64,000 nt of DNA. It comes from Opitutales bacterium. GTDB taxonomy: Bacteria; Verrucomicrobiota; Verrucomicrobiia; Opitutales; T3Sed10-336. Positions 704 through 51,896 of the stretch are shown one piece after another. The notes below the pieces were generated by a model. That model saw only the letters and a list, made by a program, of their open reading frames with translations, did no database searches and had not been told where the DNA came from. The translations under genes were made by a program, and so were the position numbers. The stretch lies in NCBI GenBank assembly GCA_007130045.1, contig SLTG01000001.1:44864-108863 (forward strand), given 5' to 3'. Position 1 is the first letter of the stretch. The number at the start of each line of letters is the position of its first letter.

Positions 704-854
704 TCGGAACAATTGACGGCCGGTTCGCCGAATACACAAGCGGAACAGCAATCCGCGAAGAATGTCGCAATGCACGTCGTCCGCCGCCAAGACACTCTCC
801 TCGCGGGGCTTTCCTCTTGTCCGGAACTGGTGTAAAGTGACCAAGGAATTTTTC

Positions 855-1877: not shown

Positions 1878-1880
1878 TCC

Positions 1881-2360: not shown

Positions 2361-2426
2361 AATCGCGGGCTCTTTTTCATCAGGGCCGCGAAAATCCCCT
2401 TTACGTCGTTCCGTTTTTGTAGGACC

Positions 2427-3719: not shown

Positions 3720-3946
3720 TTTTCAGCTTGCAACCGGGAATATTTGTGGCAAGTTTTTTATAACTTGAAACTTCTTAACGCTTATTGTTTAGATGGGAAC
3801 AGAAAAAATTTGAGCAATGATTAACGGTGAATGTCGCCTCGTCTAGTGATAAGCCTTTTAGTAACGATCAAACAGATAACAACTCACCGGCTCACTCCCA
3901 TCGAATAAGTAAAACATCAATCCATAAACTTAATCCAACACAGTAT

Positions 3947-4678: not shown

Positions 4679-4753
4679 CGACGACGTGGCGGGGCTGGGT
4701 TTAACAGCCTCCCACTGAGAGAAATTTCTCTCCTGAAAACAATTAACAACCGT

Positions 4754-4787
4754 AAAAAAGGCCGGGGTGCATACCCGGCCTTTTTTT
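4754..4787 (+). terminator. Rho-independent terminator downstream of the pseudopilin-like gene
   Basis: The sequence is 'aaaaaaGGCCGGGgtgcataCCCGGCCttttttt': a 7-bp GC stem, a 7-nt loop and a T7 run. Confidence 0.8.
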
Positions 4788-4893
4788 GGGGAATACGGCA
4801 TCGACGGTGTCCAACGGGCACCGACCGATCTGAAGGGAGGGTGTACCGATATCGGTGTTGCAAAGACTCAAGTCCCACATTTTCCTTAAACGC

Positions 4894-6588: not shown

Positions 6589-6706
6589 GCTCGGAACTCC
6601 ACCGCGTCGCGTTTTGTTATCCGCCGGAGCCTCGTGCAGGGTGTGTCTTCGCACCCGTCGTCAATGCATTCATCGCAATCGGAAATACCGCAAGCCGCGC
6701 CCGAAT

Positions 6707-6736
6707 TGTTAACCCACCTGAATTTTCCGCTTAACA
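6707..6736. promoter_or_regulatory. Candidate BirA-type biotin operator upstream of bioA
   Basis: Inverted repeat 'ATTGTTAACC'-N-'GCTTAACATT' (TGTTAAC-N16-cTTAACA, 6/7 complementary), 77 nt upstream of the bioA ATG. It matches the known TGTnAAC-N14-16-GTTnACA operator architecture. Confidence 0.45.
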
Positions 6737-6812
6737 TTCATGTCGTCACCCTCTAAAAGCAGACGAACAATGGAACTCTTTCCCCGTAAAGAGGGTTGGG
6801 AATCAATACATC

Positions 6813-16663: not shown

Positions 16664-18314
16664 GGGAATGGTTATCCATCTTGATCGCAGTGCGGACCTC
16701 CGTTCCCGGCGGCGCACAACAGGTAGGCAATCTTTCCGCAAAGCCGTACGAAGCGGCTCCTTCAGCCGAGCCGGGCGTCGCGTCCGCCGCTTCAATCGCG
16801 ACATCGCCGCCTCCGTACATCGGCGCCACGGTTTCGTTTATTCCGTCGGTGAGCGAACGTGGCCACAGCCCCACAAGGATCAGAAGCGCCAGCAGGACAA
16901 GTGCCGGCGTCCGCTCGAACCATAGTATGTCGTGGATCGTTTTCCCTTTCGACGCCTTCCTGAACTCATCCGTTTCCTCGCCGAAAAAGATGTTTCCGGC
17001 CGCGCGCAATCCATAGACAGCCGAAATCACGACCCCGAACACCGCCGGAACCACCATCCATTCACGGTACTGCCAAAGCCCGATAAACACGGTCAGCTCG
17101 CCCCAGAAGTTCGCGAGTCCGGGTCCCGGAAGACCGATGCTGGCGAGCATGGCCGTCACAAAGAACGCCGCCAGGACCGGAGCCTTCCGCGCGAGCCCAC
17201 CCATCTCCCTCATATCAAAGGTTCCGGTCCGCTGGTAAATGCAGTTCCCCAGCAGGAACAGGAGGGCGACTGTCAGCCCGTGCGCGAACATCAGGATGAC
17301 CGCGCCTCCCACCCCGACGGCGGACAGACACGCCAGACCGAGGAAACAGTATCCCATGTGCATGACGGAACTGAATCCGATCATCTGCTTGAGATCGCGT
17401 TGCGCAACGGTAACAAAGCCGATGACGATCACGTTTCCGAGGGCCAGAAGGGCGAGCAGGTACATCCAGCTCGCCGCTCCTTCCGGCAGCAGGGGCGCGC
17501 CGATTTGAATCAGGCCGTAGAGGCCGAACTTCTTGAGAACCCCGGCGTGCAGCATGGCCGCCGACGTGGGCGCCGCGCCATAGCCCAATGCAGCCCAGGT
17601 GTGGAACGGCCAGAGTGAAACGAGAATCCCGAACCCGAACAGCAGGAGCGCAAACGTGTGCCGCTGTGCAACACTGCCGATGCTCTGCCCTTCGAGGGCG
17701 TTTTTCAGGCTGATGATATCGAACGATGTCGCCCCGCTCTGCACGTAAAGCGCAATCAGCCCGACCAGCGACAGCAGCGCACCGAGCGAGAGGTAAATCG
17801 TCATCTTCATGGCGGCGTAGTGCCGCTCGCGCCCGCCCCAGATACCGATCATCAGAAACGTTGGAATCAGGGCGATTTCGTGAAAGAAGTAGAAAAAGAA
17901 AACATCGACAGAGGCAAAGATCCCCATCAACCCGCCGTGCATGAAAAGCAGCAGCGCCAGGTATTGCCGCAATCGTTCGGCAGGCGAAACCAGAGCGTAA
18001 AACCCCGCGGCGAATCCGGCGACTCCCGCCAGAACAAAGAGCGGCAAAGATATTCCGTTGAGTCCCAGTTTGAGCGAAATGCCCACGATGCCGAGGCCCG
18101 TCGGGACTTCTGTAAGGAACGCATAACCCGTTTCCGGATCGGGCGAGAACGCGAACCAGAGCCAAAGCGAAACCAACGCCGGAAACAGAAATCCCACGAA
18201 CGCGAGCTTCCGGGCAAACACGTTGGCCGAGGTGCCGAACAACAGCAGAATGCCGCCGAAAATGATCGGAACGAAAACGGAGAGTTGAAGCAGACTTTCG
18301 GAAATCTCAGCCAT
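16656..18314 (-). CDS. nuoM: NADH-quinone oxidoreductase subunit M
   Basis: ORF 16656..18359; the ATG at 18314 gives 'MAEISESLLQL'. Antiporter-like blocks 'KLGLNGISLPLF', 'WPFHTWA' and 'LKKFGLYGL'. Confidence 0.9.
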   Translation of the reverse strand: MAEISESLLQLSVFVPIIFGGILLLFGTSANVFARKLAFVGFLFPALVSLWLWFAFSPDPETGYAFLTEVPTGLGIVGISLKLGLNGISLPLFVLAGVAGFAAGFYALVSPAERLRQYLALLLFMHGGLMGIFASVDVFFFYFFHEIALIPTFLMIGIWGGRERHYAAMKMTIYLSLGALLSLVGLIALYVQSGATSFDIISLKNALEGQSIGSVAQRHTFALLLFGFGILVSLWPFHTWAALGYGAAPTSAAMLHAGVLKKFGLYGLIQIGAPLLPEGAASWMYLLALLALGNVIVIGFVTVAQRDLKQMIGFSSVMHMGYCFLGLACLSAVGVGGAVILMFAHGLTVALLFLLGNCIYQRTGTFDMREMGGLARKAPVLAAFFVTAMLASIGLPGPGLANFWGELTVFIGLWQYREWMVVPAVFGVVISAVYGLRAAGNIFFGEETDEFRKASKGKTIHDILWFERTPALVLLALLILVGLWPRSLTDGINETVAPMYGGGDVAIEAADATPGSAEGAASYGFAERLPTCCAPPGTEVRTAIKMDNHSHE

Positions 18315-18331
18315 AACCGGAAAAAGTGGGT

Positions 18332-20200
18332 TCAGAGAATGAAGCCAACAAAAAGCCACATCAGCACCACACCGAGAAAGATCCAGTACACGTACCCGTG
18401 CAGACTCCCGGTCTGGGCGGACTTGATGCCAAGACTCACAAACCCGATTATCCCGGCCGCGCCGCGAACGATCAGGCCGGAGATCACAATGTGATCGAAA
18501 AAATTAATCAGACTGGAAAAGCGCTGCTGAACCTTCACCACGTACCAGTCGTAAACGTCGTCAAAGAAGAAAGCGCGCGCCAGGAACGAATGTATCGCCG
18601 GCCGGTGTTGTTCCAGCCGATCCTTCCGCGCGCCTGCTCCGTAAAAAAGCCACGCCGCGACCAGGCCCGCGACAAGCACCGAAATCGACACTCCCGCCAC
18701 CAGTGCAAAATCGCCCCCCTCGGCGTGCGGCACGTGCATCATGATGTCGTGAAAGATCGCCGGGTGCATGAACTCGTAGCCCGCCAGCACCGAAAAAATC
18801 GCAAGGATCACCAACGGGCCCGTCATCACCCAACCATTCTCGCGGGCATCACTCGCGGCCTCGCTCTTCGCCTCACCGAAAAACGCCGTCAGCCAAAGCC
18901 GCGTCATGTAAAACGCGGTCAGAAGCGCCGTCAACGCCAAAATAACGAACACCGCCTTGCTGTTCGCCCAGGCAAGATAAAGAATAGCGTCCTTGCTGAA
19001 GAAGCCCGCAAGTCCGGGCATGCCGATCAGCGCGAGCACGCCGATGGTAAATGTGGCGAATGTGATCGGCATTGTGACACGAAGGCCGCCCATGCGGTAG
19101 ATGCTCTGCTCGTGATGGCAGGCGTGGATGACCGAGCCCGCACCCAGAAAGAGGAGGGCCTTGAAAAATCCGTGCGTTACCAGGTGGAACATCGCCGCGC
19201 CTATACCCGCCTGGATCGCCGTGCCCGTCTCTCCATCGAGAACAAGCGCTCCGAGCCCGAACGCGGCCACCATATAGCCGAGCTGGGAAATCGTCGAGTA
19301 CGCCAGGATTTTCTTTATATCGGTCTGCGTGATCGCGCACAGGGACCCCAGCACCGCTGTCAGCGCGCCTACCCACATAATCACCGCCATGGCGTCGGGC
19401 GGGATCAGGAAGAAGATCCGGCAGAGGAGATAGATGCCAGCCGCAACCATCGTCGCCGCATGGATCAGGGCCGAAACCGGCGTCGGGCCTTCCATCGCAT
19501 CCGGCAGCCAGACGTGCAGCGGAATCTGTCCCGACTTGCCGAGCGCGCTGCAGAACAGAAGCAACCCGATGCCGACGTGCAGAATCTCCGGATCGGCCCC
19601 CACCAGCGCTTCCATTTCGAACAGGTTGAGGGTCCCGAAATGCCAGTAGCTCCAGATGATGCCCAGCAGGAAACCGAAATCGCCCAGACGGTTGACGATG
19701 AACGCCTTTTTCGCGGCGGCCGCCGCCGAGGGCTTGTGGTAGTAATGATTTATCAGCAGGAACGAACTGAGCCCCACCAACTCCCAGAAAATGAACATCA
19801 TGATCAGGTTGTTGGCGAACACGATCCCCATCATCGAAAACATGAACAACGACAACCCCGCGAAATAGCGTGCCTTGCCCGGATCGTCCTTCATGTATCC
19901 CAAGCTGAAGACATGAATCAGGAAACCGACCACTGCGACGACGAACAGGAGCAGCGCGGCGAGGTCGTTGAAATAGAACCCCATCGAGACCGTATACTCG
20001 CCAAAGGTCATCCAGTCATAAGAAAACTCTTCGCGAATATTTCCGAAAATAAGGTAAAGGGAACCGATGAGCACCACTGCGGCGGCCGCAAGGGACACGG
20101 CGGCCGCCAGTTCCCCCCGGCGCCTGAGAAAAGCGCCGATGAGACCTGCCGAAACGAACGGAACCAGCAGAAGGATGACGATCAGATGCTCGACGCTCAT
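18332..20200 (-). CDS. nuoL: NADH-quinone oxidoreductase subunit L
   Basis: 622 aa. Blocks 'IFWELVGLSSFLLI', 'GKSGQIPLHVWLPDAMEGPTPVSALIHAATMV' and 'AYSTISQLGYM'. Confidence 0.95.
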   Translation of the reverse strand: MSVEHLIVILLLVPFVSAGLIGAFLRRRGELAAAVSLAAAAVVLIGSLYLIFGNIREEFSYDWMTFGEYTVSMGFYFNDLAALLLFVVAVVGFLIHVFSLGYMKDDPGKARYFAGLSLFMFSMMGIVFANNLIMMFIFWELVGLSSFLLINHYYHKPSAAAAAKKAFIVNRLGDFGFLLGIIWSYWHFGTLNLFEMEALVGADPEILHVGIGLLLFCSALGKSGQIPLHVWLPDAMEGPTPVSALIHAATMVAAGIYLLCRIFFLIPPDAMAVIMWVGALTAVLGSLCAITQTDIKKILAYSTISQLGYMVAAFGLGALVLDGETGTAIQAGIGAAMFHLVTHGFFKALLFLGAGSVIHACHHEQSIYRMGGLRVTMPITFATFTIGVLALIGMPGLAGFFSKDAILYLAWANSKAVFVILALTALLTAFYMTRLWLTAFFGEAKSEAASDARENGWVMTGPLVILAIFSVLAGYEFMHPAIFHDIMMHVPHAEGGDFALVAGVSISVLVAGLVAAWLFYGAGARKDRLEQHRPAIHSFLARAFFFDDVYDWYVVKVQQRFSSLINFFDHIVISGLIVRGAAGIIGFVSLGIKSAQTGSLHGYVYWIFLGVVLMWLFVGFIL

Positions 20201-23874: not shown

Positions 23875-26835
23875 TCACGGCAGCGTGACCTGAACGCTCC
23901 CGAAAGCGCGGGCGGCGGACGGGTCGAGCGGGATTCGCACGACGACCCGCTTCCAGTCAGCGCTGATCGCGGTGACTTCCGTTTGCCCGTTCGCCGGGTG
24001 CCAGGTGGCGAGATCGGTCGAGTACCGGGGCGTGTAGATCAGGCCGGTGTCCCGTCGCCGCACGAACTCGATCACCAGCGCCGGTTCCGGACCGTCCTCG
24101 AACGCAACGGCCGGAAGACCGGCGTTCCCGCCCGCGCCGCGTACCAGTCTCCGGTGGTCGGCTTCCGACAAATCCATGTTGAAGGCGTATTTGAGAAGGT
24201 TGTACACGCCTTCGCCAAACGGGTCGGCGTCGGGCTCGGCAAGACCGCCGCTCAGCCCCGCCTCGTCCATCGCCGCGTCGAAACGCAGGCGTTCCTTCAG
24301 GTTAAAGACGGCCACGATGTCCGTATCCGAATCGAGCACCACGGCCACCAATGCCGCCGTCCTCTCGATGTCGCCCGCCCAGCGCGCAAAAACCGAGTCC
24401 TCTCCGGCAACGGCCTCGATTTGAAGTTCGGCGCCCGTTTCGAGTTGGCCGATAATAGGAAATTCCGAAATGGTCTGGCCGCCGATCACAATCGAACCAT
24501 GCCCGTCGCCAACAGTATCGATAAAATACATACGGTGACCGGGCGATCGGAAGAATTCGATCGGTGTGGGAACGAGACGATCCTCCGTATCCCCGTGGCC
24601 GAGCCGGCCGGAAAGGTTGGCGCCGAATGTGAACACGGTGCCGTCCTCTGAGAGCAATACCGTGTGGTTCGCGCCCGCAGCGATCTCAACGATCGTGTGC
24701 CCGGAAAGGTGTTCATGTTCGATCAAAACGGGAACGAGGCGATTTTCCCTATCTCCGTGCCCGAGTTGCCCCAGAATATTTCGTCCGAACGTAAATACGG
24801 TTCCGTCTTCCGACAGAAGCACGGAGTGTTCGCCTCCCGCCGAAATCCTTCTGATGTTATGATTCACCAGGTTCTCATGGTCGATCAAGGCCGGTAACAC
24901 ACGGACCTCCGTCCCGCCATGTCCGAGCCGACCGTATGCGCCGCTTCCGAATGCAAAAGCCTTCCCTCCCAACGAGCGCAATATTGTATGGATTCCTCCT
25001 GCTGAGATATCTGCAATGGCCTGTCCCGAAACGTCCCCTGCGGCGACCCGTACGGGCACCAGGCTGTTGGGCATATTCTCGCGCCCCAACTGCCCGAACT
25101 GGTTATCGCCAAAGCCAAATACTGTCCCGTTTCCGGAAAGGAGGAGCGAGTGCGCTCCTCCGGGAGACCGGCCGATCTGCCCACCCGTTCCGGCCGCGAC
25201 GCTCCGGATAGTGAATCCCGACAGGCTGGCGTGCTCGATCCTGGTCGGTGTGTCCCTGGAACTTTGATTTCCGTGCCCGAGCTGCCCACCCCGTCCGGAC
25301 CCAAACGTGAAAGCCGTACCATCCGAAGCGGTCAGAATGGTTTGGGACATCCCGGCGGCCGCTCCGGTAATTATGTAGCCGTCCAGCCCTTGATACTCGA
25401 TCGGCGTCGGAACGAAGCGATTCTGGTTATCCCCGTGCCCCAACTGTCCCGAGGACCCACTTCCAAATGTAAGAACCGTTCCGTCAGCGGAAAGCAGTAC
25501 GGTGTGCCGTAATCCGGCCGCGACGTCGATTATGGTGTGGCCGGACAGATTTTCGTGTTCGATGGGAATCGGCACCCAGCGGTCCACTTGGTCGCCGTGA
25601 CCGAGCTGGCCCCACAGCCCCCGGCCGAACGTGTACACCGTGCCGTCCGCCGAAAGGAGAACAGTATGCTGCCCACCGGCGGCGAGCTTCGGTTCAACCA
25701 TTCCGGGAACCACCGAGATCGTAAAAGCCTCTTCGTATGTAATGTAAACCGAGGCGGAGGATACGGCCGCCAGCCGGATGGAGTACTCGCCGGGTTCGAG
25801 AGGACCGGTGGTTCGCAGTTCATTACCGGAAACCGAGAAGTTCGTGTTGTTGTCGTCACCGGCACCCGAAGCCAGGGCAAAATGCAGCGTTTCGTCATCG
25901 GCGGCATCCACGTGGAGCGGGCTCACAGCCATCCCGTCGCCCGTACGCTCCGTCCCGATCGATTGGCGCCAGAGCACGATCCGCCGTGACCCGAACACTG
26001 CCCCGATTTCCAGGTCCTCGTCCAACGTCACAACCGCCAGGGGTTCGGTCCCACTCGCATCGAAGACCCAGCGGTCGAAAAACGATCCCTCTTCCGCCAT
26101 CGCCTCGAGGTGATATTCGGCGCCGGTTTCCGCCTGCATAAGAATCGGAAAACTGGATACAGGTTCGCCGTTTACCAGAACGGTTCCTCCTCCGTCGCCG
26201 AGGCGCTCAATGCGAAGCATGCGGTTTCCCGGCCTCCTGAAAGTCTCTATGGGCGTCGGCACGAAGCGGAACACGGTGTCCCCGTGGCCGAGCTGCCCGA
26301 GCGCGCCCCGGCCAAACGTAAACACCGTGCCGTCCTCGGACCAGAGAACCGAATGGTCGCCTCCGGCAGCGATGCCGACGATCATGTGCCCGGTCAGGTT
26401 CTCGTGCTCGATCGCCACCGGCACACTGCGGGATTGGGTGTCATCATCCCCCAGCCAACTGTCCCCGAACGAAAACACCGTTCCCTTCGACGAGAGGAGG
26501 AGCGTGCGATAGGTGACCGCCGCGACCCGAATGATGGTGTGGCCTGCAATATTCCCGTGCTCGATCGGCGTCGGCTCCATACGGTCGATCTGATCACCGT
26601 GTCCCAATGCTCCACCCCATCCCCCGCCAAACGTAAACACGGTCCCGTCGGCGGAAAGAAGCACCGTGTGCCGAGCCCCGGCAGCCACATCCACGATGGT
26701 GTGTTCGGAGAGAAGCGGATGCTCGATCGCCACCGGAATCGATCGGTCGTCGGTATCCCCGTGTCCCAGTTGGCCGAAACGACCCGCGCCAAATGTGAAC
26801 ACTTCACCGTCGGGCGAGAGATAGACCGTGGCGTT
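23875..26835 (-). CDS. Giant RCC1-repeat surface protein, C-terminal segment (continues ORF 26394..29945 after a 1-nt frame change; the ORF track starts it at GTG 26802)
   Basis: 11 RCC1 blades ('DGTVFTFG.G..GQLGHGD'), two B-repeat-like domains ('LVNGEPVSSFP..FDRW..AVF'), one cadherin-like domain ('HFALASGAGDDNNTNFSVSGNELRT') and a C-terminal 'GVYNLLKYAFNMD...STDLATW' domain. The frame stays open upstream of 26802 to 26835 and encodes 'NATVYLSPDGE'. Confidence 0.85.
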   Translation of the reverse strand, partial: NATVYLSPDGEVFTFGAGRFGQLGHGDTDDRSIPVAIEHPLLSEHTIVDVAAGARHTVLLSADGTVFTFGGGWGGALGHGDQIDRMEPTPIEHGNIAGHTIIRVAAVTYRTLLLSSKGTVFSFGDSWLGDDDTQSRSVPVAIEHENLTGHMIVGIAAGGDHSVLWSEDGTVFTFGRGALGQLGHGDTVFRFVPTPIETFRRPGNRMLRIERLGDGGGTVLVNGEPVSSFPILMQAETGAEYHLEAMAEEGSFFDRWVFDASGTEPLAVVTLDEDLEIGAVFGSRRIVLWRQSIGTERTGDGMAVSPLHVDAADDETLHFALASGAGDDNNTNFSVSGNELRTTGPLEPGEYSIRLAAVSSASVYITYEEAFTISVVPGMVEPKLAAGGQHTVLLSADGTVYTFGRGLWGQLGHGDQVDRWVPIPIEHENLSGHTIIDVAAGLRHTVLLSADGTVLTFGSGSSGQLGHGDNQNRFVPTPIEYQGLDGYIITGAAAGMSQTILTASDGTAFTFGSGRGGQLGHGNQSSRDTPTRIEHASLSGFTIRSVAAGTGGQIGRSPGGAHSLLLSGNGTVFGFGDNQFGQLGRENMPNSLVPVRVAAGDVSGQAIADISAGGIHTILRSLGGKAFAFGSGAYGRLGHGGTEVRVLPALIDHENLVNHNIRRISAGGEHSVLLSEDGTVFTFGRNILGQLGHGDRENRLVPVLIEHEHLSGHTIVEIAAGANHTVLLSEDGTVFTFGANLSGRLGHGDTEDRLVPTPIEFFRSPGHRMYFIDTVGDGHGSIVIGGQTISEFPIIGQLETGAELQIEAVAGEDSVFARWAGDIERTAALVAVVLDSDTDIVAVFNLKERLRFDAAMDEAGLSGGLAEPDADPFGEGVYNLLKYAFNMDLSEADHRRLVRGAGGNAGLPAVAFEDGPEPALVIEFVRRRDTGLIYTPRYSTDLATWHPANGQTEVTAISADWKRVVVRIPLDPSAARAFGSVQVTLP

Positions 26836-29828
26836 CCGCCAACGGCAATCTTTGACTCGACCGCAACGACGCGAATCGTGAACGCCCTTTCAATGATCAG
26901 GCCATTCCCGCCGGTGGCGCGCAGCCGGATCGAATACTCGCCTGTCTGAAGCTCGTCGCCGAGGAGGAGTTCGTTGCCATCGATCGTGAAACGCCCATTG
27001 TCTTCGTCTCCCTCGCCGGACACCAAAGCGAAGGTGAACGTTTCCCCCGGTGGCGCCACGGCGTGAAGACGACTGACCAATGCGCCGGGGACAGCCCGTT
27101 CGGCGGCAATCGACTGGTTCCAAATCACTATTTTCCGCAATTTGAAGATGGCCGTCACATCTTTGTGATCGTCGAGAACCAGGCTCTGTGAAAACTCCGT
27201 GCCGCTCAGGTCCCCCGCCCAGTGATCAAAAAAGGAGTCTTCTTCCGAAATCGCCTCCAGCGCGAGTTCTTCGTCGCCTTCGCCCAGGAAGTAGTAGGGA
27301 AATTCGAGAACCGGTTCGCCGTTTACAAGCAATTGCCCCGATCCGGTGCCCGCAGCGTCCAGGCGAAGCACCCTCTTGCCAAGGAGATTCAGAAGCTCGA
27401 TTCGTGCAGGCCGGAGCCTGTCTTCCTTGTCGCCCAGTCCCAGTTGGCCGCCGTCGCCCCGGCCGAAGGTGAAGACCGTGCCGCCCGATGAAACGAGCAC
27501 CGTATGAGAACCGCCCGTTGCCAGACCGGTGACTGCATGTCCGAACACATCTTCTTGCGCGATTGGAGTCGGCACCAGGCGGTTGTCGGTATCCCCGTGT
27601 CCCAAACGCCCGTTGGCCCCCCACCCAAACGTCAATACGGTGCCGTCCTGCGTAAGCACCGCGGTAAAGGCGCCGCCTGCTGCGATTGAATCGATCGTGT
27701 GCCCCAATAGGCTTGCGGTGGGAACCTGGGTTGGCACAAACCGTGTGGCGGTATCGCCGTGTCCGAGTTGACCGCTTCCTCCGGCGCCAAAGGTAAACAC
27801 GGCGCCCTGCGACGAAAGCAACACCGTGTGAGATCCCGCGGCGACGGCAGCGACGATGAGGTGCCCGGCCAGGTGCTCATGCTGGATGGGAGTGGGCTCA
27901 AGCCGGTTCTCTGTGTCTCCGTGCCCCAGCCTCCCGCTTACGCCGGAACCGAAGGTGAATACCGTGCCGTCCGCGGAGAGCAGGACCGTAAAACTCGCTC
28001 CGGCCGCCACATCGATAATCCTGTGGCCGATGAGCGAATCGTGCTCGACAGGTGCCGGAAGTGTCAGGTCCTGCGTGTTCCCGTGACCGAGTCGGCCGAA
28101 CCCGCCCGAACCGACGGTGTACACGGTGCCGTCCGATCCGAGAAGAACCGTGTGCGAATTGCCGCCCGCCACTTTCGGCGCGACGTTTTCGGAAACGACC
28201 GAAACCACGAATGCGGTCTCGACAGTCCGGCCACCCTGGCTCGTCGCGCGCAAGCGAACGGAGTACGTGCCTTTCGTAAGCGAATCGGTTGTTTGCAGTT
28301 CGTTGCCTTCGACAGCAAACAGCGCGTTGTCCGCGTCGCCTTCGCCGGAAACAAGCCCGAACGTGAACGGATCGTCTTCGGCGCCGGCAGCGTGGAGCAG
28401 TCCGACAACGGCGCCCTCTCCAGTCTGCTCCGCCCCGATCGTATCGTGCCAGAGTACGAACGCGCTTTCCCCGAAGACCGCCTTGACGGTTTTGTCCGCG
28501 TCGGCGATCAACGTACGGGTTCCGCCGGTCCCGCTCAATTCGCCTAGCCAGCGGTCGAAATACGCCCCCGGTTCCGGCACGGCTTCGACCGGCAACTGCG
28601 CATCGGTCTCAAATTGTGTCATAAACGGAAACTCCGAAACTTCCTCGCCTCCGACGAGAAGCGTCCCCTGTCCGCCCCCCGCCGTCTCGAACCGCACCAT
28701 TCTATGCCCGGCCAACCGGAAGAACCCGATCGGCGCAGGCACGAGCCGGTGCTCCGTGTCGAAATGGCCGAGCTGCCCGAGGATTCCCATCCCAAAGGTC
28801 AGCACCGAGCCCTCCGCGGTAAGAACGGCAGTATGGGCGCCGCCCGCAGCCACCTCGACAATCGTCTGTCCGGAAAGACTCTCGTGCCCGATCTGAACCG
28901 GAACGGTCCGGCCCTCCATGTCCCCTTGGCCGAGGCGCCCGAGGTTCCCCGCCCCGAACGTGAATACGGCATCCGCTCCGTACAGAACCGTGTGTGCCGA
29001 TCCCGTGGTAATCCGGGATATTGCGTGTCCGCCGAATACTTCGGAGTCGATCGGGGACGGATCGAGTCGGGCCGAGGTATCCCCATGTCCCAATTGCCCT
29101 TCATTGCCGCGACCGAAAGTCAGGACGGTTCCGTCCGCGGCGAGTAGAACGCTGAACCGGGTTCCGGCCGCAACCTCGACGATCGATTTACCGGAAAGGC
29201 TTTCGTGCTCGATTGGGACGGGTGTCGACCGGTCCACGGTGTCTCCGTGGCCGAGCGCGCCCTCGCGTCCCTGTCCGAACGACAACACAGCACCGTCCGA
29301 CAAATACAGCAGGGTGTGGGATCCTCCCGCGGCGATGCCGGCGATCGTATGTCCGGTCAGGTCTTCGTGCTCGATCGCAACCGGAACGTTGCGGTTCCCC
29401 GTGTCGCCGTGCCCGAGCCTTCCGTGCGATCCCAGACCGAAAGTGAAAACGGTGCCGTCCGACGAGAGCAGGACCGTGTGCGCCCCGCCTGCGGCAATAC
29501 CGGTAATCGTGTGACCTGAAAGGTTTCCGTGGACGATCTTCGTGGGAACGTGCCGGTTGGCGGTGTCGCCGTGTCCGAGTCGGCCGTCGACGCCCGAACC
29601 GAAGGTGAAAACCGTTCCGTCATTGGAAAGGAGCACGGTGTGGTGGTCGCCCGCGGCCACATCGACGATAGTGTGCCCCGAAAGGGCTTGATGTTCGATC
29701 GCAACCGGGATTGTCCGGGACTCGGTGTCCCCGTGTCCGAGCTGTCCCCGGGTCCCGCGTCCGAAGGTAAACACGGCGCCGTCCGAAGACAGCAGAACGG
29801 TATGGAAGATCCCGGCGGAGACCTTTGC
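24295..29828 (-). repeat. Intragenic repeat region: 23 RCC1 blades of about 50 codons in four super-modules
   Basis: Recurrent coding repeat '..HTVLLS.DGTVFTFG.G..G.LGHGD...R..P..IEH..L.GH.I..VAAG'. The blades are arranged 7+5+4+7. Super-module boundaries fall near 28182/28181, 26859/26858 and 25705/25704. Confidence 0.85.
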
Positions 29829-29945
29829 CTCCGGGATTCCGAAGTCCGTAACGGGAGCGGCTCGCTCCGATGCGGCGCGAACCGCAGTGTATGATAGCGC
29901 AATTATGCCGAAGACGGCAAGCAGGCGGAGGGTTTGGGATTTCAT
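26394..29945 (-). CDS. Giant RCC1-repeat surface protein, N-terminal segment (meaningful coding 26835..29945; 26394..26834 is an out-of-frame tail)
   Basis: Signal peptide 'MKSQTLRLLAVFGIIALSYTAVRAA'. 12 RCC1 blades in two super-modules, each followed by a B-repeat-like and a cadherin-like domain ('FGLVSGEGDADNALFAVEGNEL', 'FALVSGEGDEDNGRFTIDGNEL'). After 'ESKIAVGG' the translation becomes Arg/Ser/Trp-rich nonsense. Confidence 0.85.
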   Translation of the reverse strand: MKSQTLRLLAVFGIIALSYTAVRAASERAAPVTDFGIPEAKVSAGIFHTVLLSSDGAVFTFGRGTRGQLGHGDTESRTIPVAIEHQALSGHTIVDVAAGDHHTVLLSNDGTVFTFGSGVDGRLGHGDTANRHVPTKIVHGNLSGHTITGIAAGGAHTVLLSSDGTVFTFGLGSHGRLGHGDTGNRNVPVAIEHEDLTGHTIAGIAAGGSHTLLYLSDGAVLSFGQGREGALGHGDTVDRSTPVPIEHESLSGKSIVEVAAGTRFSVLLAADGTVLTFGRGNEGQLGHGDTSARLDPSPIDSEVFGGHAISRITTGSAHTVLYGADAVFTFGAGNLGRLGQGDMEGRTVPVQIGHESLSGQTIVEVAAGGAHTAVLTAEGSVLTFGMGILGQLGHFDTEHRLVPAPIGFFRLAGHRMVRFETAGGGQGTLLVGGEEVSEFPFMTQFETDAQLPVEAVPEPGAYFDRWLGELSGTGGTRTLIADADKTVKAVFGESAFVLWHDTIGAEQTGEGAVVGLLHAAGAEDDPFTFGLVSGEGDADNALFAVEGNELQTTDSLTKGTYSVRLRATSQGGRTVETAFVVSVVSENVAPKVAGGNSHTVLLGSDGTVYTVGSGGFGRLGHGNTQDLTLPAPVEHDSLIGHRIIDVAAGASFTVLLSADGTVFTFGSGVSGRLGHGDTENRLEPTPIQHEHLAGHLIVAAVAAGSHTVLLSSQGAVFTFGAGGSGQLGHGDTATRFVPTQVPTASLLGHTIDSIAAGGAFTAVLTQDGTVLTFGWGANGRLGHGDTDNRLVPTPIAQEDVFGHAVTGLATGGSHTVLVSSGGTVFTFGRGDGGQLGLGDKEDRLRPARIELLNLLGKRVLRLDAAGTGSGQLLVNGEPVLEFPYYFLGEGDEELALEAISEEDSFFDHWAGDLSGTEFSQSLVLDDHKDVTAIFKLRKIVIWNQSIAAERAVPGALVSRLHAVAPPGETFTFALVSGEGDEDNGRFTIDGNELLLGDELQTGEYSIRLRATGGNGLIIERAFTIRVVAVESKIAVGGTPRSISRPTVKCSHLARVVSANWDTGIPTTDRFRWRSSIRFSPNTPSWMWLPGLGTRCFFPPTGPCLRLAGDGVEHWDTVIRSTVWSRRRSSTGILQATPSFGSRRSPIARSSSRRRERCFRSGTVGWGMMTPNPAVCRWRSSTRT

Positions 29946-46111: not shown

Positions 46112-47923
46112 TTACCCGCGCCCATTGCCCTCTGGGCTGTCCTTCGACAGATTGAGGAGGAACATGCAAGCGTCGATCCGCGGCTGGCCGACTTCGATCG
46201 TCAGGAGTCCGTCTTCGACCAGTTCGGCGACTGCCTCGTCGTGCTCCTCGCTAATCTGGTTCACACATCGGCTGACTTTGCCCGGCCGCACCAGCACCGA
46301 AACGAGAGTCAGCATGAAAAAACACATTGGCAGCAGGGCGAGAAGAAGGCTGGTTCCCAGCATCGAGAACGGCGCGGCGGGAAAGCGTCCGGACACCTCC
46401 GGCTCACGTCCGAACACTTCTCTCGCCGCGCTGAAGAAATCAAGGTACAGCCCGTAAATCGGCCAGGCAAAAAAGGCCCAGAAAAGGAGAAACCCAATCC
46501 CCCCGCAGAGGACGACGGCCCGGCGCGAGGGCGCCCAGCGTTCAACCGCCGACTGAAAGATATCGGATGAACGCGCCTGCAAACTGCTCAGTCCGGAAAC
46601 TTTTACCTCGATCCGTTCGGAACCGGGAAGGGGTTCGCCTTTGTCCGCTCCGAGTTCGTGGCGAAGGACGAACTCCAGCTCCTTGACCTGCGGGGTCACT
46701 TTCTCCCGAACCGCCTGTTCCACGAAATCGCGAATGCCGCCTTCGACTTCCTTTGAAAACTCCGACGCGTTGCGAAGATTCTTCGCCGCGGCAAAGGCCC
46801 CCGACAGAACCGAGGGCACGCTCCCCATCAACGCCAGGGGAATTCGATCGACCGCTCCGTGGAGCAGGTTGGCGAGCGCGAGGACGGTGCGCCATGGAAA
46901 AAGAAAGTATGGCGTCCGATGCAGGAGCGTCGCCCGCAATCGCTGCCGCACCCCCGCCTTGAGCACACGCTCCGATCCGAGCAGGTGCCCCAGCGTCTCC
47001 CGCGGCAGGGTCGTCTCGAACTCCCGCAGCGATTCCAGCGCCCGCCGGCTGGCCGGGAGGCGTTCAGAAATCAAATCCCCCACGTCCTTTTTGAACCGCC
47101 GGTATTTGTGATTCAATTGCGATTGCGGCAGGTCCTGCAAACGCCGCGGCCCGGCCGCCGCGCGTATCGCTTCCATGAGCCTGCCCGCATCCTCGCGGGA
47201 GATTCGCGATGCGACAGGGTCCACCGCCGCTTCGTCGAGCCCGGAATCGCGTATGCACACCGCGCGGCAGATCCCGGCATGAGGAAGGTCTTTCGCGAGC
47301 CTCGTCTGAAATCCATCCAGATCCTCCGGCGACGGCGCTTCGCGAACGAAATTGACCACCGGCAGGATGAGCGAGCCGTCCGCCCGGGAAAGATAGTGGA
47401 CAACGGCCTTGTCCTCGATCTCCCGCTGCGCGACCACGAGCACCTTCACCAGCGCGCTGTCGAGCGCCCGGACGGCGGCGTCCGCGCGCCGCTCTTCCGC
47501 CTCGTTAAAGCCCGGCACATCTACGAGAGTGTACGGGAAGCCGAGATCCTCGAGATCGCTTTCCGTGCAGCGGATGTGCGCTTCGCTCGCTTCCCGCAAT
47601 CCGAACGGCGGGTTCGGCCCGACCCAGGTCACCTTCTCCGTCGCATCCGCCCGGGCGTAACCGGTTTTCAATCGGCGACGCGTTTCCTCACTGCGAACGA
47701 ACAGGGACAGCAACTGCGTCTTGCCGGAATTCTTCGGACCCGTAAACGCCACGGTCACATGGTCGATCCCGCGGTTCTCGACGATTTCCCGGCAGGAAAG
47801 CCGGAAATCCTCGCACATCCGGGCGACCGCCGAATACCCGTCCCAATCCAGGCCGAGGACGCCCGCGTGACGCTCCACCGCGTCGGCGAGTTCGTTGCAG
47901 GATTCAAGTAGTCTGCACGGCAT
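46112..47923 (-). CDS. Large membrane-hairpin P-loop NTPase, paralog B (divergent dynamin-like/TRAFAC-like)
   Basis: 603 aa. Walker A 'GPKNSGKTQ' (47717..47740) and G3-like 'TLVDVPGF'. 'PVVNFVRE' sits in place of NKxD. A long helical region precedes two hydrophobic helices near the C-terminus. The start lies inside the upstream gene (20-nt overlap). Confidence 0.75.
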   Translation of the reverse strand: MPCRLLESCNELADAVERHAGVLGLDWDGYSAVARMCEDFRLSCREIVENRGIDHVTVAFTGPKNSGKTQLLSLFVRSEETRRRLKTGYARADATEKVTWVGPNPPFGLREASEAHIRCTESDLEDLGFPYTLVDVPGFNEAEERRADAAVRALDSALVKVLVVAQREIEDKAVVHYLSRADGSLILPVVNFVREAPSPEDLDGFQTRLAKDLPHAGICRAVCIRDSGLDEAAVDPVASRISREDAGRLMEAIRAAAGPRRLQDLPQSQLNHKYRRFKKDVGDLISERLPASRRALESLREFETTLPRETLGHLLGSERVLKAGVRQRLRATLLHRTPYFLFPWRTVLALANLLHGAVDRIPLALMGSVPSVLSGAFAAAKNLRNASEFSKEVEGGIRDFVEQAVREKVTPQVKELEFVLRHELGADKGEPLPGSERIEVKVSGLSSLQARSSDIFQSAVERWAPSRRAVVLCGGIGFLLFWAFFAWPIYGLYLDFFSAAREVFGREPEVSGRFPAAPFSMLGTSLLLALLPMCFFMLTLVSVLVRPGKVSRCVNQISEEHDEAVAELVEDGLLTIEVGQPRIDACMFLLNLSKDSPEGNGRG

Positions 47924-50021
47924 GATGTTCCTTCTCCCACTGTTTAAGAATTGCGAGCAGCTTCTTGCGGGCCTTCGGATTCACGGCAAACAGACGCCAC
48001 CCGGCTTCGCGAACGCCGTAGCTCGTGGTGTCAAGCTGCTCTTCCAAGGCGGGTTTGAAAAGCTCTTTTTCATCAAGCATTTCCTCGATGACCGGACGGG
48101 GAATCCCGATCCGGTCGCCCGCGATCGCAATAAAATTACTGAACTGCCTGCATCCGATTTTTTGATTCATCTCGCGGTCGAGCATTCGCAGGGTGCCCGC
48201 CGCCATTAATCCGCCGAGACCGAGCACGCCCATCAACTCGAGCGCGGTGATCCCCAGCACAGACGCCCCGCCGTCGAACGGAATCAGGATCACCGCCGCA
48301 AGCCCGACGAAAAAGGAGCCGAATATGCGAACGGTCGCCTTCAATTTGCTGGTGTTCTTCCAGATCTGCCGGGCCAGCGCGTCCCACTCCTCGCGGGTCA
48401 TGTTCGTGCGCTCCTCCACGCGGTAACGCTCCAGAATCGCACGCGCCTCCTCTTTCCACGATCGCTCCGGACCCGCTTCCCTCGTGGCGACGCTCCAGCG
48501 GTAAAGGAGTTTTTCAATGTCCTTTTCCTGGATCAACTGCTTCTGGAGCCGGTTCTTGAGACTTTCGAATTTTCCACCCGCCCGGAGCCACGGAAAAGCT
48601 CGCGCCATCGCCTCGCGCCCCTGCCTCACCGCTTCGACCGCCCGGTGCACGATTCTACGGCGAAGGGCGATCAGCGGCTTCAGCTGCAACGGCGCCGTCC
48701 GCTCCATACTTTCCTTGAAGCTCATCACGATTTCCGGATCGATCTTGAGGCGAAGTGCCTGATCCCCGTCGTGCATAAGCTCGTGTGCGAGTTCGTGGAG
48801 TTCGCCGGCCGCGCGCTTCACCCGGACGCGCTCCGCGTCCGCCTTCGCATCGAGCGCGGCAAGCTGCTCACGGACTTGTCCGAGCAGGTCCTCCGCAATC
48901 TCGCGCTGGCGCTTTTGCCGGATCACCGCCGGGCGGACCAGGTCCGCCAGACAATGGATCGATCGCTCCTCCTGAATCCGGTCGGGACCGTTTCGTCCGG
49001 CATCGGAATCAATTCTGAAAAAACACGGCTCACGCGCGTCCTCCGGCTTCTGGAAATTCTCGTCCCAGGCCGGTGTGAAGTCACGACTGGCGGGAACAAG
49101 GAAGTCATAGGCGCCGTAGCAGAGGATACCGGTCTTCGTTCGCAACGCCTGGCATAATTCATCGTAAACGGCTTCGGGCGGTTCGGGCGGACGGATCAGG
49201 TTGATCGCAAAAATTCTGACAGCCTCGGGAATGCGCCGCCGCACCAGTTCCCCGAGATCGCGAATCTCGATCTGCGACCGCGGCGTCACGATAATCACCC
49301 CGGCGCAAATTTCGGACGCCTTCGCAATCGCCTCCAGACGCAGGTTCTCTCCTTCCTTCTCGTTCTCCTGCAAGCGTTGCATGTCCGGGCAATCCAGCAA
49401 CGCCACGCCGTGCCGATCCAGACCTTCGTCGAATGCGACCAATGGACGGTGAAACGCGCTCACGTCGGCGTACTGCTCCCGGCTTTCGTCCGGATCTGCG
49501 GAAAGGTGCTCGGGCCGGTCTTCGAAGATAAACCCCAGGATTGTCTCCAGGCGCTCGAACAGCGCCGGATCGGATTCCCATGAACGCGGAATCCAGAGAA
49601 CAAACCGCTGCGTTCCCTGCCGGCTTCCCAACCCGACCGGAACCCGTTCGCGATTCGGCGGAGCCAGAAAGGAGCGCACGAGGGACGACTTGCCGCCGTT
49701 GATTGGTCCAATGACGGCCAGAATCGGCACGTCGCTGAACTCGCGGGCAATCCTCGACGTCGTTTCGAGTCTTTCGTACGCCGCGGGCTCGATCTCCCGC
49801 AAGGCGTCCAGAAACCCCATTTCCTTCGTCTCCGGCCAGGTTTCCCCCACCAGTTGTAAGCCGGGTTCTTTAAGTCCGCTCCAGAATTCGTTAAGATCCA
49901 TGCGCCGTGCGTTCTTGCGTTTCAAATCGATTGCTGTAGACATTAAAGATTCTGTTTGGCCGGTCCTCAATGCGAAAGCCGGATCCGCCAAAAACGAATT
50001 ATTATCGTTAACGCCCTCCAT
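47904..50021 (-). CDS. Large membrane-hairpin P-loop NTPase, paralog A (divergent dynamin-like/TRAFAC-like)
   Basis: 705 aa as called. Walker A 'GPINGGKSS' (49686..49709) and 'ALLDCPD'. 'FAINLIRP' sits in place of NKxD. It has helical stalk-like regions and hydrophobic hairpin 'IFGSFFVGLAAVILIPF...VLGITALELMGVLGLGGLMAAGTL'. Alternative starts at 49943 (M27) or 49901 (M41) are more plausible than 50021. Confidence 0.75.
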   Translation of the reverse strand: MEGVNDNNSFLADPAFALRTGQTESLMSTAIDLKRKNARRMDLNEFWSGLKEPGLQLVGETWPETKEMGFLDALREIEPAAYERLETTSRIAREFSDVPILAVIGPINGGKSSLVRSFLAPPNRERVPVGLGSRQGTQRFVLWIPRSWESDPALFERLETILGFIFEDRPEHLSADPDESREQYADVSAFHRPLVAFDEGLDRHGVALLDCPDMQRLQENEKEGENLRLEAIAKASEICAGVIIVTPRSQIEIRDLGELVRRRIPEAVRIFAINLIRPPEPPEAVYDELCQALRTKTGILCYGAYDFLVPASRDFTPAWDENFQKPEDAREPCFFRIDSDAGRNGPDRIQEERSIHCLADLVRPAVIRQKRQREIAEDLLGQVREQLAALDAKADAERVRVKRAAGELHELAHELMHDGDQALRLKIDPEIVMSFKESMERTAPLQLKPLIALRRRIVHRAVEAVRQGREAMARAFPWLRAGGKFESLKNRLQKQLIQEKDIEKLLYRWSVATREAGPERSWKEEARAILERYRVEERTNMTREEWDALARQIWKNTSKLKATVRIFGSFFVGLAAVILIPFDGGASVLGITALELMGVLGLGGLMAAGTLRMLDREMNQKIGCRQFSNFIAIAGDRIGIPRPVIEEMLDEKELFKPALEEQLDTTSYGVREAGWRLFAVNPKARKKLLAILKQWEKEHHAVQTT

Positions 50022-50976
50022 GGCCGAACCTTATTCGCATCGAAATCTCCTCTCCATCAAGAATCTGACGAAACGCTACGGCGCCCTTACGGCCGTCGAC
50101 GATGTCTCGCTTGAGATCCGGCCCGGCGAGATTTTCGCGCTGCTGGGCGTCAATGGCGCCGGCAAGACAACCATGATCGGGTGCATCACCGGATTGATCT
50201 CCAGGTTTGAGGGAGAAATCCGCATCGCCGGATACGATGTGCGGAAAGATTACCGCATCGCGCGCCAGCTTGTCGGACTCGTCCCCCAGGAACTGAATTT
50301 CGACGGTTTCTTTCCGACCGCCGAAACCCTCCGTTACCAGGGCGGCTACTTCGGGCACCGCGCCAATCGCGCCCGCGCCGATGAACTCCTCGAAACCTTC
50401 TCCCTCACCGAAAAGGCCGACGCCAATACACGCAAACTCTCCGGCGGGATGAAGCGGCGGCTCATGGTCTGCAAGTCGCTCATGCACAGCCCCGCTCTCC
50501 TCTTTCTCGACGAACCGACCGCCGGGGTCGATGTCGACCTGAGGGAAAACCTCTGGAACTACATCCGCAAACTGCGCGACTCCGGCACCACGATCGTCCT
50601 GACCACCCACTACCTCGAAGAGGCCGAGAACCTCGCGGACCGCATCGGGATTATCAACCGGGGTCGACTGCTGCGGGTTGATTCGCGCGATGAGCTTATG
50701 CGCCTCTTCGGGCGGCGCTGGATCGAGGTCCGCCTCTCCGGCCCCGTGCCGTCCGGACTAATGGACCGGTTGGACGACTTTCAACCTGAAACTCCCGCTC
50801 CGGACCGGCTGCGTATCACGTTTTCCGAGCCGGCGCACCACGGCTCGTGCGACGAAGCGCCCGTCAAGCGCCTGATGCGGGAAATCCAGCGCGCCGGCCT
50901 CGAGATGGAAACCCTCGAGGGCGGCAGGAATCGCCTCGAAGATATTTTCCGCGAGGTCGTTCATTCTGACGCGTAA
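50020..50976 (+). CDS. ABC transporter ATP-binding protein (ABC-2 exporter type)
   Basis: The ATG at 50020 gives 'MAEPYSHRNLLSIKNLTKRYG'. Walker A 'GVNGAGKTT', signature 'LSGGMKRR' and Walker B 'LLFLDEPTAGVD'. Confidence 0.92.
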   Translation: MAEPYSHRNLLSIKNLTKRYGALTAVDDVSLEIRPGEIFALLGVNGAGKTTMIGCITGLISRFEGEIRIAGYDVRKDYRIARQLVGLVPQELNFDGFFPTAETLRYQGGYFGHRANRARADELLETFSLTEKADANTRKLSGGMKRRLMVCKSLMHSPALLFLDEPTAGVDVDLRENLWNYIRKLRDSGTTIVLTTHYLEEAENLADRIGIINRGRLLRVDSRDELMRLFGRRWIEVRLSGPVPSGLMDRLDDFQPETPAPDRLRITFSEPAHHGSCDEAPVKRLMREIQRAGLEMETLEGGRNRLEDIFREVVHSDA

Positions 50977-50981
50977 ACGCA

Positions 50982-51896
50982 GTGGCAATGATGAACCCTC
51001 CCGATCCCATGATTCAACCGGCTACCGAAACCGTTGCTTCAGCAGCCCGGAGGAGCGACGGCATGCCGCCACGCGAGGCCGAGGAAGCAGCCCGCCGGCA
51101 CATCACCCAGGTCGAGCGGCGCGCCATAGGGAATCACGGATCGCGGGGAACCTGGATGCTGTTTCGGCGGGAACTGGCGCGCTTCATGAAGGTCGCCGGC
51201 CAGACGATCGTCAGCCCCGTCCTCACGACCATCCTCTGGTTTATCGTCTTCGGCTTTTCCCTGGGCAGCCGCCTCGATCAGATCAACGGCATCCCCTACG
51301 TCGATTTTCTTGTCCCCGGCCTGATCATGCTCAACCTGATCAGTAATGCTTTCCTGAATACGGGTTTCTCGCTTTTCATTTCGAAAGTCCACGGCTCCGT
51401 TGTGGACATCCTCCTCACTCCCCTCACACCGACCCAGATCATGATCGGCTACACCGCCGCGTCGGTGCTTCGTGCCCTGATCATTGGAGGCCTGATCTGG
51501 CTGGTCGCGGAAGTGATGGGCGCCTCGACCCTCCACAACCCGGCATTTACGCTGGCGTTCATGATCCTGACTTCGATGGCGTTCTCCCTCTTCGGGCTGG
51601 TCGTCGCGATCCTTGCCGAGGACTTCGACCACATCAACCTGTTCCCGAGCTTCCTGATCATGCCCCTGACGTTTCTCGGCGGCGTCTTCTATTCGATCGA
51701 GATGCTGCCGTCACCCTGGGACACCGTTTCCCTGGTCAATCCCATCCTCTACATGGTCAACGGGCTGCGTTACGGAATGACCGGTGTCACGGACGTCCCG
51801 GTCGGCCTCGGCCTCTTCCTGGTCACCGGCTCAGTCGCCGTCTTCGGCGCGGTCGCCTACTGGCTGCTGGCCACTGGGAAAAAGCTGCGCGAATGA
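50982..51896 (+). CDS. ABC-2 type transporter permease
   Basis: 6-TM ABC-2 layout: 'RELARFMKVAGQTIVSPVLTTILWFIVFG', 'FLVPGLIM' and 'NPILYMVNGLRYG'. It starts 6 nt after the ATPase gene. There are several close start candidates (GTG 50982, ATG 50988/50991). Confidence 0.85.
   Translation: MAMMNPPDPMIQPATETVASAARRSDGMPPREAEEAARRHITQVERRAIGNHGSRGTWMLFRRELARFMKVAGQTIVSPVLTTILWFIVFGFSLGSRLDQINGIPYVDFLVPGLIMLNLISNAFLNTGFSLFISKVHGSVVDILLTPLTPTQIMIGYTAASVLRALIIGGLIWLVAEVMGASTLHNPAFTLAFMILTSMAFSLFGLVVAILAEDFDHINLFPSFLIMPLTFLGGVFYSIEMLPSPWDTVSLVNPILYMVNGLRYGMTGVTDVPVGLGLFLVTGSVAVFGAVAYWLLATGKKLRE

Follow-up and report, generated by a model that had tools for sequence, protein, structure and literature searches.

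The window analysed here is a stretch of 64,000 nucleotides from an Opitutales bacterium of the Verrucomicrobiota (GenBank assembly GCA_007130045.1, contig SLTG01000001.1, positions 44,864 to 108,863 of the forward strand). Over the compared region it is identical to contig SLCD01000063.1 of the metagenome-assembled genome (MAG) GCA_007125965.1. The minus strand of the window carries two adjacent genes, here called A and B, whose products very probably belong to the dynamin superfamily of nucleoside triphosphatases (NTPases). Gene A (47904..49901, minus strand) encodes the 665-residue partner, its start being that of the called gene and of its homologues, and gene B (46112..47923, minus strand), taken as an open reading frame (ORF), encodes the 603-residue partner. 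An earlier note on this DNA had described a translationally coupled pair of ORFs of 705 and 603 residues. Both ORFs exist, and the 3' end of A overlaps the 5' end of B by 20 nucleotides (47904..47923, minus strand). The longest ORF for gene A does run from 47904 to 50021 (minus strand) and has 705 codons, but its start is probably too far upstream and the true one probably lies 40 codons downstream. In the source assembly and in all homologues the gene starts at Met41 of this ORF (ATG at 49901). The long start is probably wrong for two reasons: codons 1-40 are not conserved in the alignment of homologues, and a gene beginning there would run into the start codon of a divergent ABC ATPase gene (50020, plus strand). 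Another possible start is the TTG at 49925, because the KRKNARRM encoded there resembles the N-terminus MKRKKSQG of the homologues P0002 and P0003.

A purine-rich, Shine-Dalgarno-like element, GGGAGAAGGA (47929..47938, minus strand), lies inside the 3' end of A, 5 nucleotides 5' of the ATG of B, a position that fits translational coupling. The 118-bp spacer between A and the divergent ABC ATPase gene (49902..50019) is presumed to be the promoter region of the A-B operon. A consensus scan for promoters and terminators found no sigma-70-like promoter, and terminator-like sites were not clearly more numerous than expected from shuffling.

Genes A and B are real and conserved. Homologues of A number 17, with 34-100% identity, none of which contains a Pfam domain. 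A first search with B yielded 11 proteins, and the same 11 were recovered when it was repeated with a diverse B alignment. An exhaustive profile search extended the family to 260 clusters at 50% identity with E<=1e-3, 179 of them with E<=1e-30, nearly all about 600 residues long and matched end to end. The pairing of the two genes was tested by fetching the surrounding DNA of relatives across the full range of divergence. A gene of the A family stands directly 5' of B, on the same strand, in all sampled loci with enough upstream DNA except one (L017), so that the co-occurrence check proposed in the earlier note came out in favour of a genuine pair. The distance from the stop of A to the start of B ranges from the 20-nucleotide overlap to a gap of 39 nucleotides. 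The pairing extends to the two most distant loci, whose proteins share 21-27% identity with those of the window: L024 (pair at 919-4971), on a contig of 40% GC also present in GCA_002163335.1, and L026 (pair at 2876-6824), where the pair lies downstream of a gene for a Ser/Thr kinase-FGE-sulfatase fusion.

Nucleotide-binding motifs and the relationship between A and B

All motifs for which the earlier note gave positions (the two P-loops, DCPD, DVPG, NLIR and NFVR) translate as described. Conservation was counted over 115 full-length cluster representatives for the B family and over 32 sequences for the A family, 31 of which cover the motifs. As delimited by AlphaFold2 secondary structure and by alignment to the G domain of B with hhalign, the G domain of A occupies residues ~56-275 (49077..49736, minus strand) and contains an A-specific insert of about 60 residues between switch I and switch II. 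That of B is compact (residues ~56-225; 47249..47758, minus strand) and is preceded by two N-terminal helices (residues 4-52). The G1 motif, or P-loop, reads GPINGGKS in A (49686..49709, minus strand), where GxxNxGK[ST] is present in 31/31 sequences, and GPKNSGKT in B (47717..47740, minus strand), with G62 conserved at 100%, G67 and K68 at 98% and S/T69 at 95%. Alignment and translation place the switch I, or G2, motif of A at GTQRF (49602..49616, minus strand), which follows the pattern G[TS][QH]R[FI] across the A family, and the switch I region of B at ATEKV (47630..47644, minus strand), in which T95 is Thr in 83% and Ser in a further 7% of the representatives. Assigned by position, a switch-I Thr thus appears to be present in both proteins.

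The G3-like motifs announced in the earlier note are of two kinds. Switch II of B is a canonical DxxG, namely DVPG (47510..47521, minus strand; D135 99%, P137 99%, G138 89%), whereas that of A reads DCPD (49383..49394, minus strand). It is DCPD in 30 of the 31 covering sequences and DTMD in the remaining one, so that an Asp takes the place of the switch-II Gly family-wide.

At the G4 position, A has NLIR (49191..49202, minus strand) within a family pattern N-[LFKM]-x-[RKSG] in which the Asn is invariant and no Asp occurs. B has NFVR (47342..47353, minus strand). Its N191 is kept in 33% of the representatives (Arg in 21%, Thr in 17%, Val in 10%) and no conserved Asp follows. The register was checked with a profile of the B-family segment from G3 to G4, without the P-loop, against PDB sequences. 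The N-x-x-R of the B family aligns with NAWD of the Nostoc bacterial dynamin-like protein (BDLP), NKWD of Der and NKID of LepA, which puts R194 of B in the place of the specificity Asp. A G4 of the RD type found in GBP and atlastin, with FVR[DE] shifted by one residue, was considered and rejected, because in the sequence alignment the Arg falls at the Asp position and the next acidic residue is unconserved. Judged by these alignments, [NT]KxD is absent family-wide and the degenerate G4 proposed for both proteins is real, in each family and relative to solved GTPases. From general knowledge of GTPases, the loss of this Asp in A and B suggests that guanine specificity is probably relaxed, in favour of ATP or mixed NTP use. 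Near-invariance of G1 to G3 in B and conservation of G1 and G2 in A imply that nucleotide is bound.

The atypical motifs of A could also be read as those of a pseudo-NTPase acting purely as a membrane scaffold or adaptor, with B as the sole enzyme and possibly a homo-oligomer. Such a division would agree with a DCPD switch II devoid of Gly, with the missing G4 Asp, with the lack of any Pfam match for A and with the single locus, L017, in which B has no adjacent A. Against it, the P-loop, switch I and DCPD of A are invariant or nearly so down to 24-27% identity, which favours a nucleotide-binding site under selection over a decaying one, and we regard a pseudo-NTPase as very unlikely.

The earlier note took A and B to be paralogues. 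Pairwise BLASTP gives a marginal match over the P-loop (E 0.01), and profile-profile comparison with hhalign reproduces the claimed alignment (96.9%, E 1.6e-10, 159 columns). With deeper profiles the match reaches 98.4% and E 5.7e-15 over 289 columns (A 56-411, B 53-348), spanning the G domain and the first stalk helices, and over this part A and B are, by profile similarity, paralogous. The relationship is demonstrable for the N-terminal half only. Paralogy over the full length is plausible from the common layout but is not claimed, as the match between the C-terminal halves is not significant.

Predicted fold, hydrophobic hairpins and family assignment

AlphaFold2 models built from the family alignments have a mean predicted local distance difference test score (pLDDT) of 84.4 and a predicted template modelling score (pTM) of 0.73 for A, and 79.0 and 0.66, respectively, for B. 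In both, N-terminal helices lead into an alpha/beta G domain, which is followed by a neck/trunk region of long helices (about 200 residues), by a pair of hydrophobic helices and, at the C-terminus, by a short alpha/beta region. When the models were compared with the PDB using Foldseek, the top matches of both were all members of the dynamin superfamily (E 2e-7 to 1e-4, prob 1.0). For A these are BDLP (2j69, E 2.1e-7), Drp1, CmDnm1, SynDLP, IniA and dynamin-1, with Fzo1, the Campylobacter jejuni protein Cj-DLP (5owv_C), OPA1, EHD and MFN1 also near the top. For B they are Cj-DLP (5owv_C and 5oxf_C, E 5.5e-7), Fzo1, OPA1, IniA, Drp1, SynDLP and MFN1. The best superpositions are with truncated Fzo1 and MFN1, comprising the G domain and the first helical bundle (target-normalized TM-score 0.41-0.51, root-mean-square deviation 6-8 Å, 360-400 columns), and the alignments with BDLP, IniA, SynDLP and Cj-DLP run over 650-860 columns, far beyond the G domain. 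GTPases of the SRP/FtsY, IRG, Toc, Era/Der and EF types rank well below the dynamin-like proteins (DLPs), and in a viral library the giant-virus dynamin GTPases rank first. Sequence profiles point the same way, though the libraries of family models do so weakly. The B-family G3-G4 profile without the P-loop has Nostoc BDLP as its best match among PDB sequences (E 4.3e-4). At E<=0.01 the Pfam model Dynamin_N (PF00350) matches 12 of 51 diverse B members (best 1.1e-5) and none of 17 A members, and the LeoA model, considered below, matches 21 of the same 51. We conclude with good confidence that A and B have the fold of the dynamin superfamily and belong to it, as the earlier note had proposed; the structural check that it suggested, carried out on the monomers, likewise gave a dynamin-like fold with a helical stalk region.

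Both proteins also contain the hydrophobic hairpin that had been described for each. Kyte-Doolittle scans show two peaks above 1.6 in A and in B. The hairpin of A, located by hydropathy and alignment, covers residues 520-575 (48177..48344, minus strand). In the A family its first segment is clearly hydrophobic (+1.6). The second has a lower hydropathy (+1.35), is rich in Gly and includes about one acidic residue; a short, conserved loop, PFDxGxS, joins the two. This second segment could cross the membrane as a helix or enter it as a re-entrant wedge. For B a transmembrane hairpin is predicted (46292..46525, minus strand), with transmembrane helix 1 (TM1) at residues 467-491, a loop of ~29 residues and transmembrane helix 2 (TM2) at residues 521-544. 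Over the B representatives, TM2 has a mean hydropathy of +2.1 and about 0 charges and TM1 a mean hydropathy of +1.4; at least two hydrophobic segments are found in 106 of the 115. The net charge is +2.7 over the 15 residues that follow TM2 and negative over the inter-helix loop (~30 residues), so that the positive-inside rule would lead one to expect a hairpin with both ends inside (N-in/C-in). The hairpins are conserved in both families and follow the helical stalk region in linear order. As predicted membrane-binding elements they would thus be placed as at the trunk tip of DLPs, where the paddle of BDLP and the transmembrane region of mitofusin/Fzo1 are located (PMC6104087).

Several observations weigh against this assignment or against a two-component system. 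With full-length DLPs the global TM-scores are low, at 0.2-0.34. Such values are expected for hinged, elongated proteins, but they leave the fold assignment dependent on local 3Di similarity and on models rather than experimental structures. The A profile from G3 to G4 has no meaningful match among PDB sequences, and whole-protein profiles retrieve from the PDB only P-loop-level matches to Der/EngA, HflX and ABC proteins. The P-loop, GxxNxGKSxL, is Era/Der-like, and the G domains are small (~170-220 residues) in comparison with those of the classical 'large GTPases'. Neither window protein matches Dynamin_N at E<=1, and window A has no match in either Pfam or NCBIfam. Between the C-terminal halves of the two proteins, hhalign detects no similarity (12%). 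Finally, locus L017, a contig of 3.6 kb (1-3619), has a B gene (1557-3344) with no A upstream but an ORF for a UbiX-like flavin prenyltransferase (73-624) before it; as the contig is short, gene A could lie elsewhere in that genome.

Some of these points would be accounted for if A and B were regulatory GTPases of the Era/Der type (MMR_HSR1) with helical and membrane-anchor extensions. In that case they would serve at the membrane as a switch or assembly factor, for instance of an envelope or transport complex, without remodelling lipid. Window B does pass the threshold of MMR_HSR1 (PF01926; 23.6 bits, cut-off 21.9), the only Pfam family to do so, and at E<=0.01 this model matches 32 of 51 diverse B members and 4 of 17 A members, window A not being among them. 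MMR_HSR1 describes G domains in general, and a match to it is little guide to function. At E<=1 none of the Pfam mitofusin, dynamin and GBP families matches window A or B, and NCBIfam returns only spurious sub-threshold matches for the window proteins. The compact G domain, the Era-like P-loop, Der/EngA and HflX as the best PDB sequence matches of the whole-protein profiles, and the divergent ABC-2 exporter conserved beside the pair in the closest clade would all suit a switch of this kind. But the Der and HflX matches are confined to the P-loop region and BDLP is the best match once the P-loop is removed. Furthermore, the full-length structural matches are DLPs, with Era/Der-like GTPases ranking far lower, tandem paralogues with a tip hairpin are a hallmark of DLPs, and the ABC neighbour is lost beyond one clade. 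We therefore consider an Era/Der-type switch unlikely.

Genomic neighbourhood and distribution

The flanks of the pair are housekeeping genes that vary by genome. In the window they include an ABC exporter, LptF/G and FtsK, the last being 2.7 kb from the pair and found there in the window genome only. In other genomes they comprise ExbD and deformylase, phosphate transport, or PolX and PlsY, and HisG is also among the neighbours. Because the flanking genes differ between genomes, the conserved unit appears to be the two genes alone. The exporter divergent from gene A is of the ABC-2 type (ABC ATPase at 50020-50976 and ABC-2 permease at 50982-51896, both plus strand). It is kept in the closest Opitutia MAGs (L006, L007, L008 and L010, at 77-85% amino acid identity), which points to vertical inheritance within that clade, and is lost in genomes beyond it. 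A functional link between the exporter and the pair is possible but unsupported.

This setting bears on the suggestion, made in the earlier note, that the pair might act in phage defence. It could be a module related to Eleos (LeoA and LeoBC; LeoABC in enterotoxigenic Escherichia coli) or of the DynA type that seals the membrane or delays lysis on infection, as an anti-phage or abortive-infection system. Eleos is likewise a two-gene dynamin-like system (bioRxiv 10.1101/2022.12.12.520048), and phage defence by Bacillus subtilis DynA requires membrane binding (PMC12998192). Within the defence library, LeoA and LeoBC are the models most often matched by the B family, in 21 and 14 of 51 members, respectively (best E 7.6e-11 and 8.2e-12), and window B matches LeoA with E 7.5e-4. 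These matches always fall on short stretches of the G domain, 30-130 residues of 559-601 profile positions (positions 105-198 of 559 for window B). Window A reaches only E 0.063 with LeoA and neither window protein matches LeoBC, so that A and B both show a weak likeness to the LeoA component of Eleos and neither to its LeoBC component. Since the similarity is limited to such short stretches, the pair is not a member of Eleos. The context also differs from that of Eleos. It is chromosomal and housekeeping (ABC exporter, LptF/G, FtsK, HisG, deformylase, phosphate transport), it has no defence genes nearby, and its synteny in the Opitutia clade indicates vertical inheritance. No match was found by tblastn in collections of 72,556 plasmids and 50,697 phages. 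The suggestion of phage defence is thus not supported, and we judge a defence role of either type to be distinctly unlikely.

All 18 species-representative genomes recovered (18/18) are Verrucomicrobiota, from Opitutia/Opitutales, Verrucomicrobiales and Chthoniobacterales, the search patterns behind them being drawn from the closer subgroup of the family. Given the distant versions at L024 and L026, the family may reach beyond the lineages identified. A literature search for a DLP pair of Verrucomicrobia returned no paper describing one, merely reviews naming both terms.

Two further features of the window lie apart from the pair. Between 14000 and 21000 the plus strand has a strong positive AT skew (0.17-0.28), and this region holds three long, very hydrophobic ORFs on the minus strand (15137-16804, 16656-18359 and 18332-20200), which look like antiporter-like subunits of NADH dehydrogenase of the NuoN/M/L type. 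The skew is the ordinary codon-composition bias of membrane proteins. At 23875-26802 (minus strand), an ORF of 975 residues contains many RCC1-like repeats ('GQLGHGD...') and a C-terminal region; it adjoins a very long ORF of 1183 residues (26394-29945).

Comparison with characterised dynamin-like proteins and a proposed mechanism

Bacterial DLPs are as a rule encoded in tandem or paired operons and function heterotypically (PMC6104087). A similar arrangement is that of C. jejuni DLP1/DLP2 (PDB 5OWV/5OXF; PMC6104087), which, like A and B, are adjacent paralogues in one operon and form a heterotypic, membrane-tethering complex. Among structural matches, Cj-DLP ranks first for B (5owv_C, E 5.5e-7), and for A it gives the highest query-normalized TM-score (0.34). 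The proteins are of similar size (~600-700 residues), with 11-14% identity. In contrast to A and B, each of which has a long hydrophobic hairpin, the Cj-DLPs are cytosolic and bind lipid via a patch at the trunk tip. Fig. 1c of the same paper (PMC6104087), by its legend, aligns Cj-DLP1 and Cj-DLP2 with other dynamin-family proteins over the motifs G1-G4; set beside them, both A and B lack the G4 Asp and A has DCPD. BDLP1 of Nostoc punctiforme (PDB 2J68/2J69/2W6D) is the top Foldseek match of A (E 2.1e-7). Like B, BDLP1 and the cyanobacterial 'Tandem A/B' DLPs (PMC5827413) have a tandem partner gene upstream, and BDLP1 has a membrane-inserting element at the trunk tip, where those predicted for the pair would also lie. 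The attachment of the BDLP paddle is transient and nucleotide-dependent (PMC6104087), whereas the hairpins of A and B look like permanent anchors; in addition, the G4 of BDLP is NAWD, as against NLIR in A and NFVR in B, and the G domain is smaller in A and B.

The order of elements in both proteins, as read from AlphaFold2 secondary structure and hydropathy, is that of mitofusin/Fzo1 (and of FZL and the atlastin type): a G domain, a helical bundle, two adjacent membrane helices and a helical C-terminal tail. This is a resemblance of layout only. The mitofusin G4 is canonical (NRWD), and the tail that follows the hairpin is far shorter in B (~55 residues) and A (~90) than in mitofusins. Mitofusin, Fzo1, FZL and atlastin are also, unlike A and B, eukaryotic or organellar. 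Mitofusins, too, occur as heterotypic isoform pairs (PMC6104087).

By description, A and B can further be compared with DynA/DynB of Streptomyces, two DLPs encoded by one operon. DynB is attached to the membrane through a pair of transmembrane segments and is the only partner reported to be so anchored (PMC8748795), in contrast to the hairpins in both A and B. DynA and DynB stabilise FtsZ rings in sporulation, whereas nothing ties A and B to the divisome. As tandem DLP operons, heterotypic function and a partner anchored by two transmembrane segments (DynB) are already known, the kind of system is not new. What has not been seen together in characterised DLPs is the combination of hairpins in both partners, family-wide loss of G4 and a conserved Gly-to-Asp change in switch II of A. 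The compact G domains are also distinctive, the window proteins escape Dynamin_N, and the family is either unannotated or labelled 'GTPase domain-containing'.

Taken together, we find it reasonably probable that A and B are a heterotypic, co-translated and very divergent pair of membrane-anchored NTPases of the mitofusin/BDLP ('fusion DLP') class that remodel membrane. Under this proposal, the two proteins would be made in roughly stoichiometric amounts from a bicistronic, translationally coupled operon. The predicted hairpins would insert into the cytoplasmic membrane and anchor both proteins there permanently, with the G domains and stalks, as well as the short C-terminal regions, on the cytoplasmic side. 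Binding of nucleotide would bring the G domain of A together with that of B in a putative heterodimer and rearrange the stalks. By analogy with characterised DLP pairs, this rearrangement might tether, bend, fuse or reseal the cytoplasmic membrane. Precedents are the Cj-DLP1/2 tetramer, which tethers membranes, membrane repair by DynA and heterotypic fusion by mitofusins (PMC6104087, PMC12998192). On account of its canonical switch II (DxPG), B would be the likely main hydrolase; A, with its conserved DCPD but intact P-loop and switch-I Thr, would be a nucleotide-binding regulatory or slowly hydrolysing partner. If both partners are anchored and a single membrane faces the cytoplasm, trans action would take place between regions of that same membrane, perhaps at invaginations, septa or lesions.

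A bolder and distinctly improbable proposal is that the pair is a bacterial counterpart of homotypic fusogens of the mitofusin/atlastin type, fusing or tethering invaginations of the cytoplasmic membrane in Verrucomicrobiota and using ATP or mixed NTPs. The nucleotide part of this proposal derives from the family-wide loss of G4 and the DCPD switch II of one partner. Verrucomicrobiota are a PVC (Planctomycetes-Verrucomicrobia-Chlamydiae) phylum known for unusual internal membranes. If true, the pair would represent a lineage-specific machine for shaping endomembranes and, apart from the EHD ATPases, the first family of DLPs that lacks guanine specificity.

Under the preferred reading, a heterotypic and membrane-anchored DLP pair, A and B offer a natural test case for the division of labour between active and regulatory G domains in heterotypic DLPs, for whether the mechanics of DLPs must use GTP specifically, and for the action of permanently anchored bacterial DLPs on a single membrane system. 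About 260 clusters labelled 'hypothetical' or 'GTPase domain-containing' are now flagged as dynamin-like, and the A-B pair is a good candidate for both the biochemistry of DLPs and the cell biology of Verrucomicrobiota.

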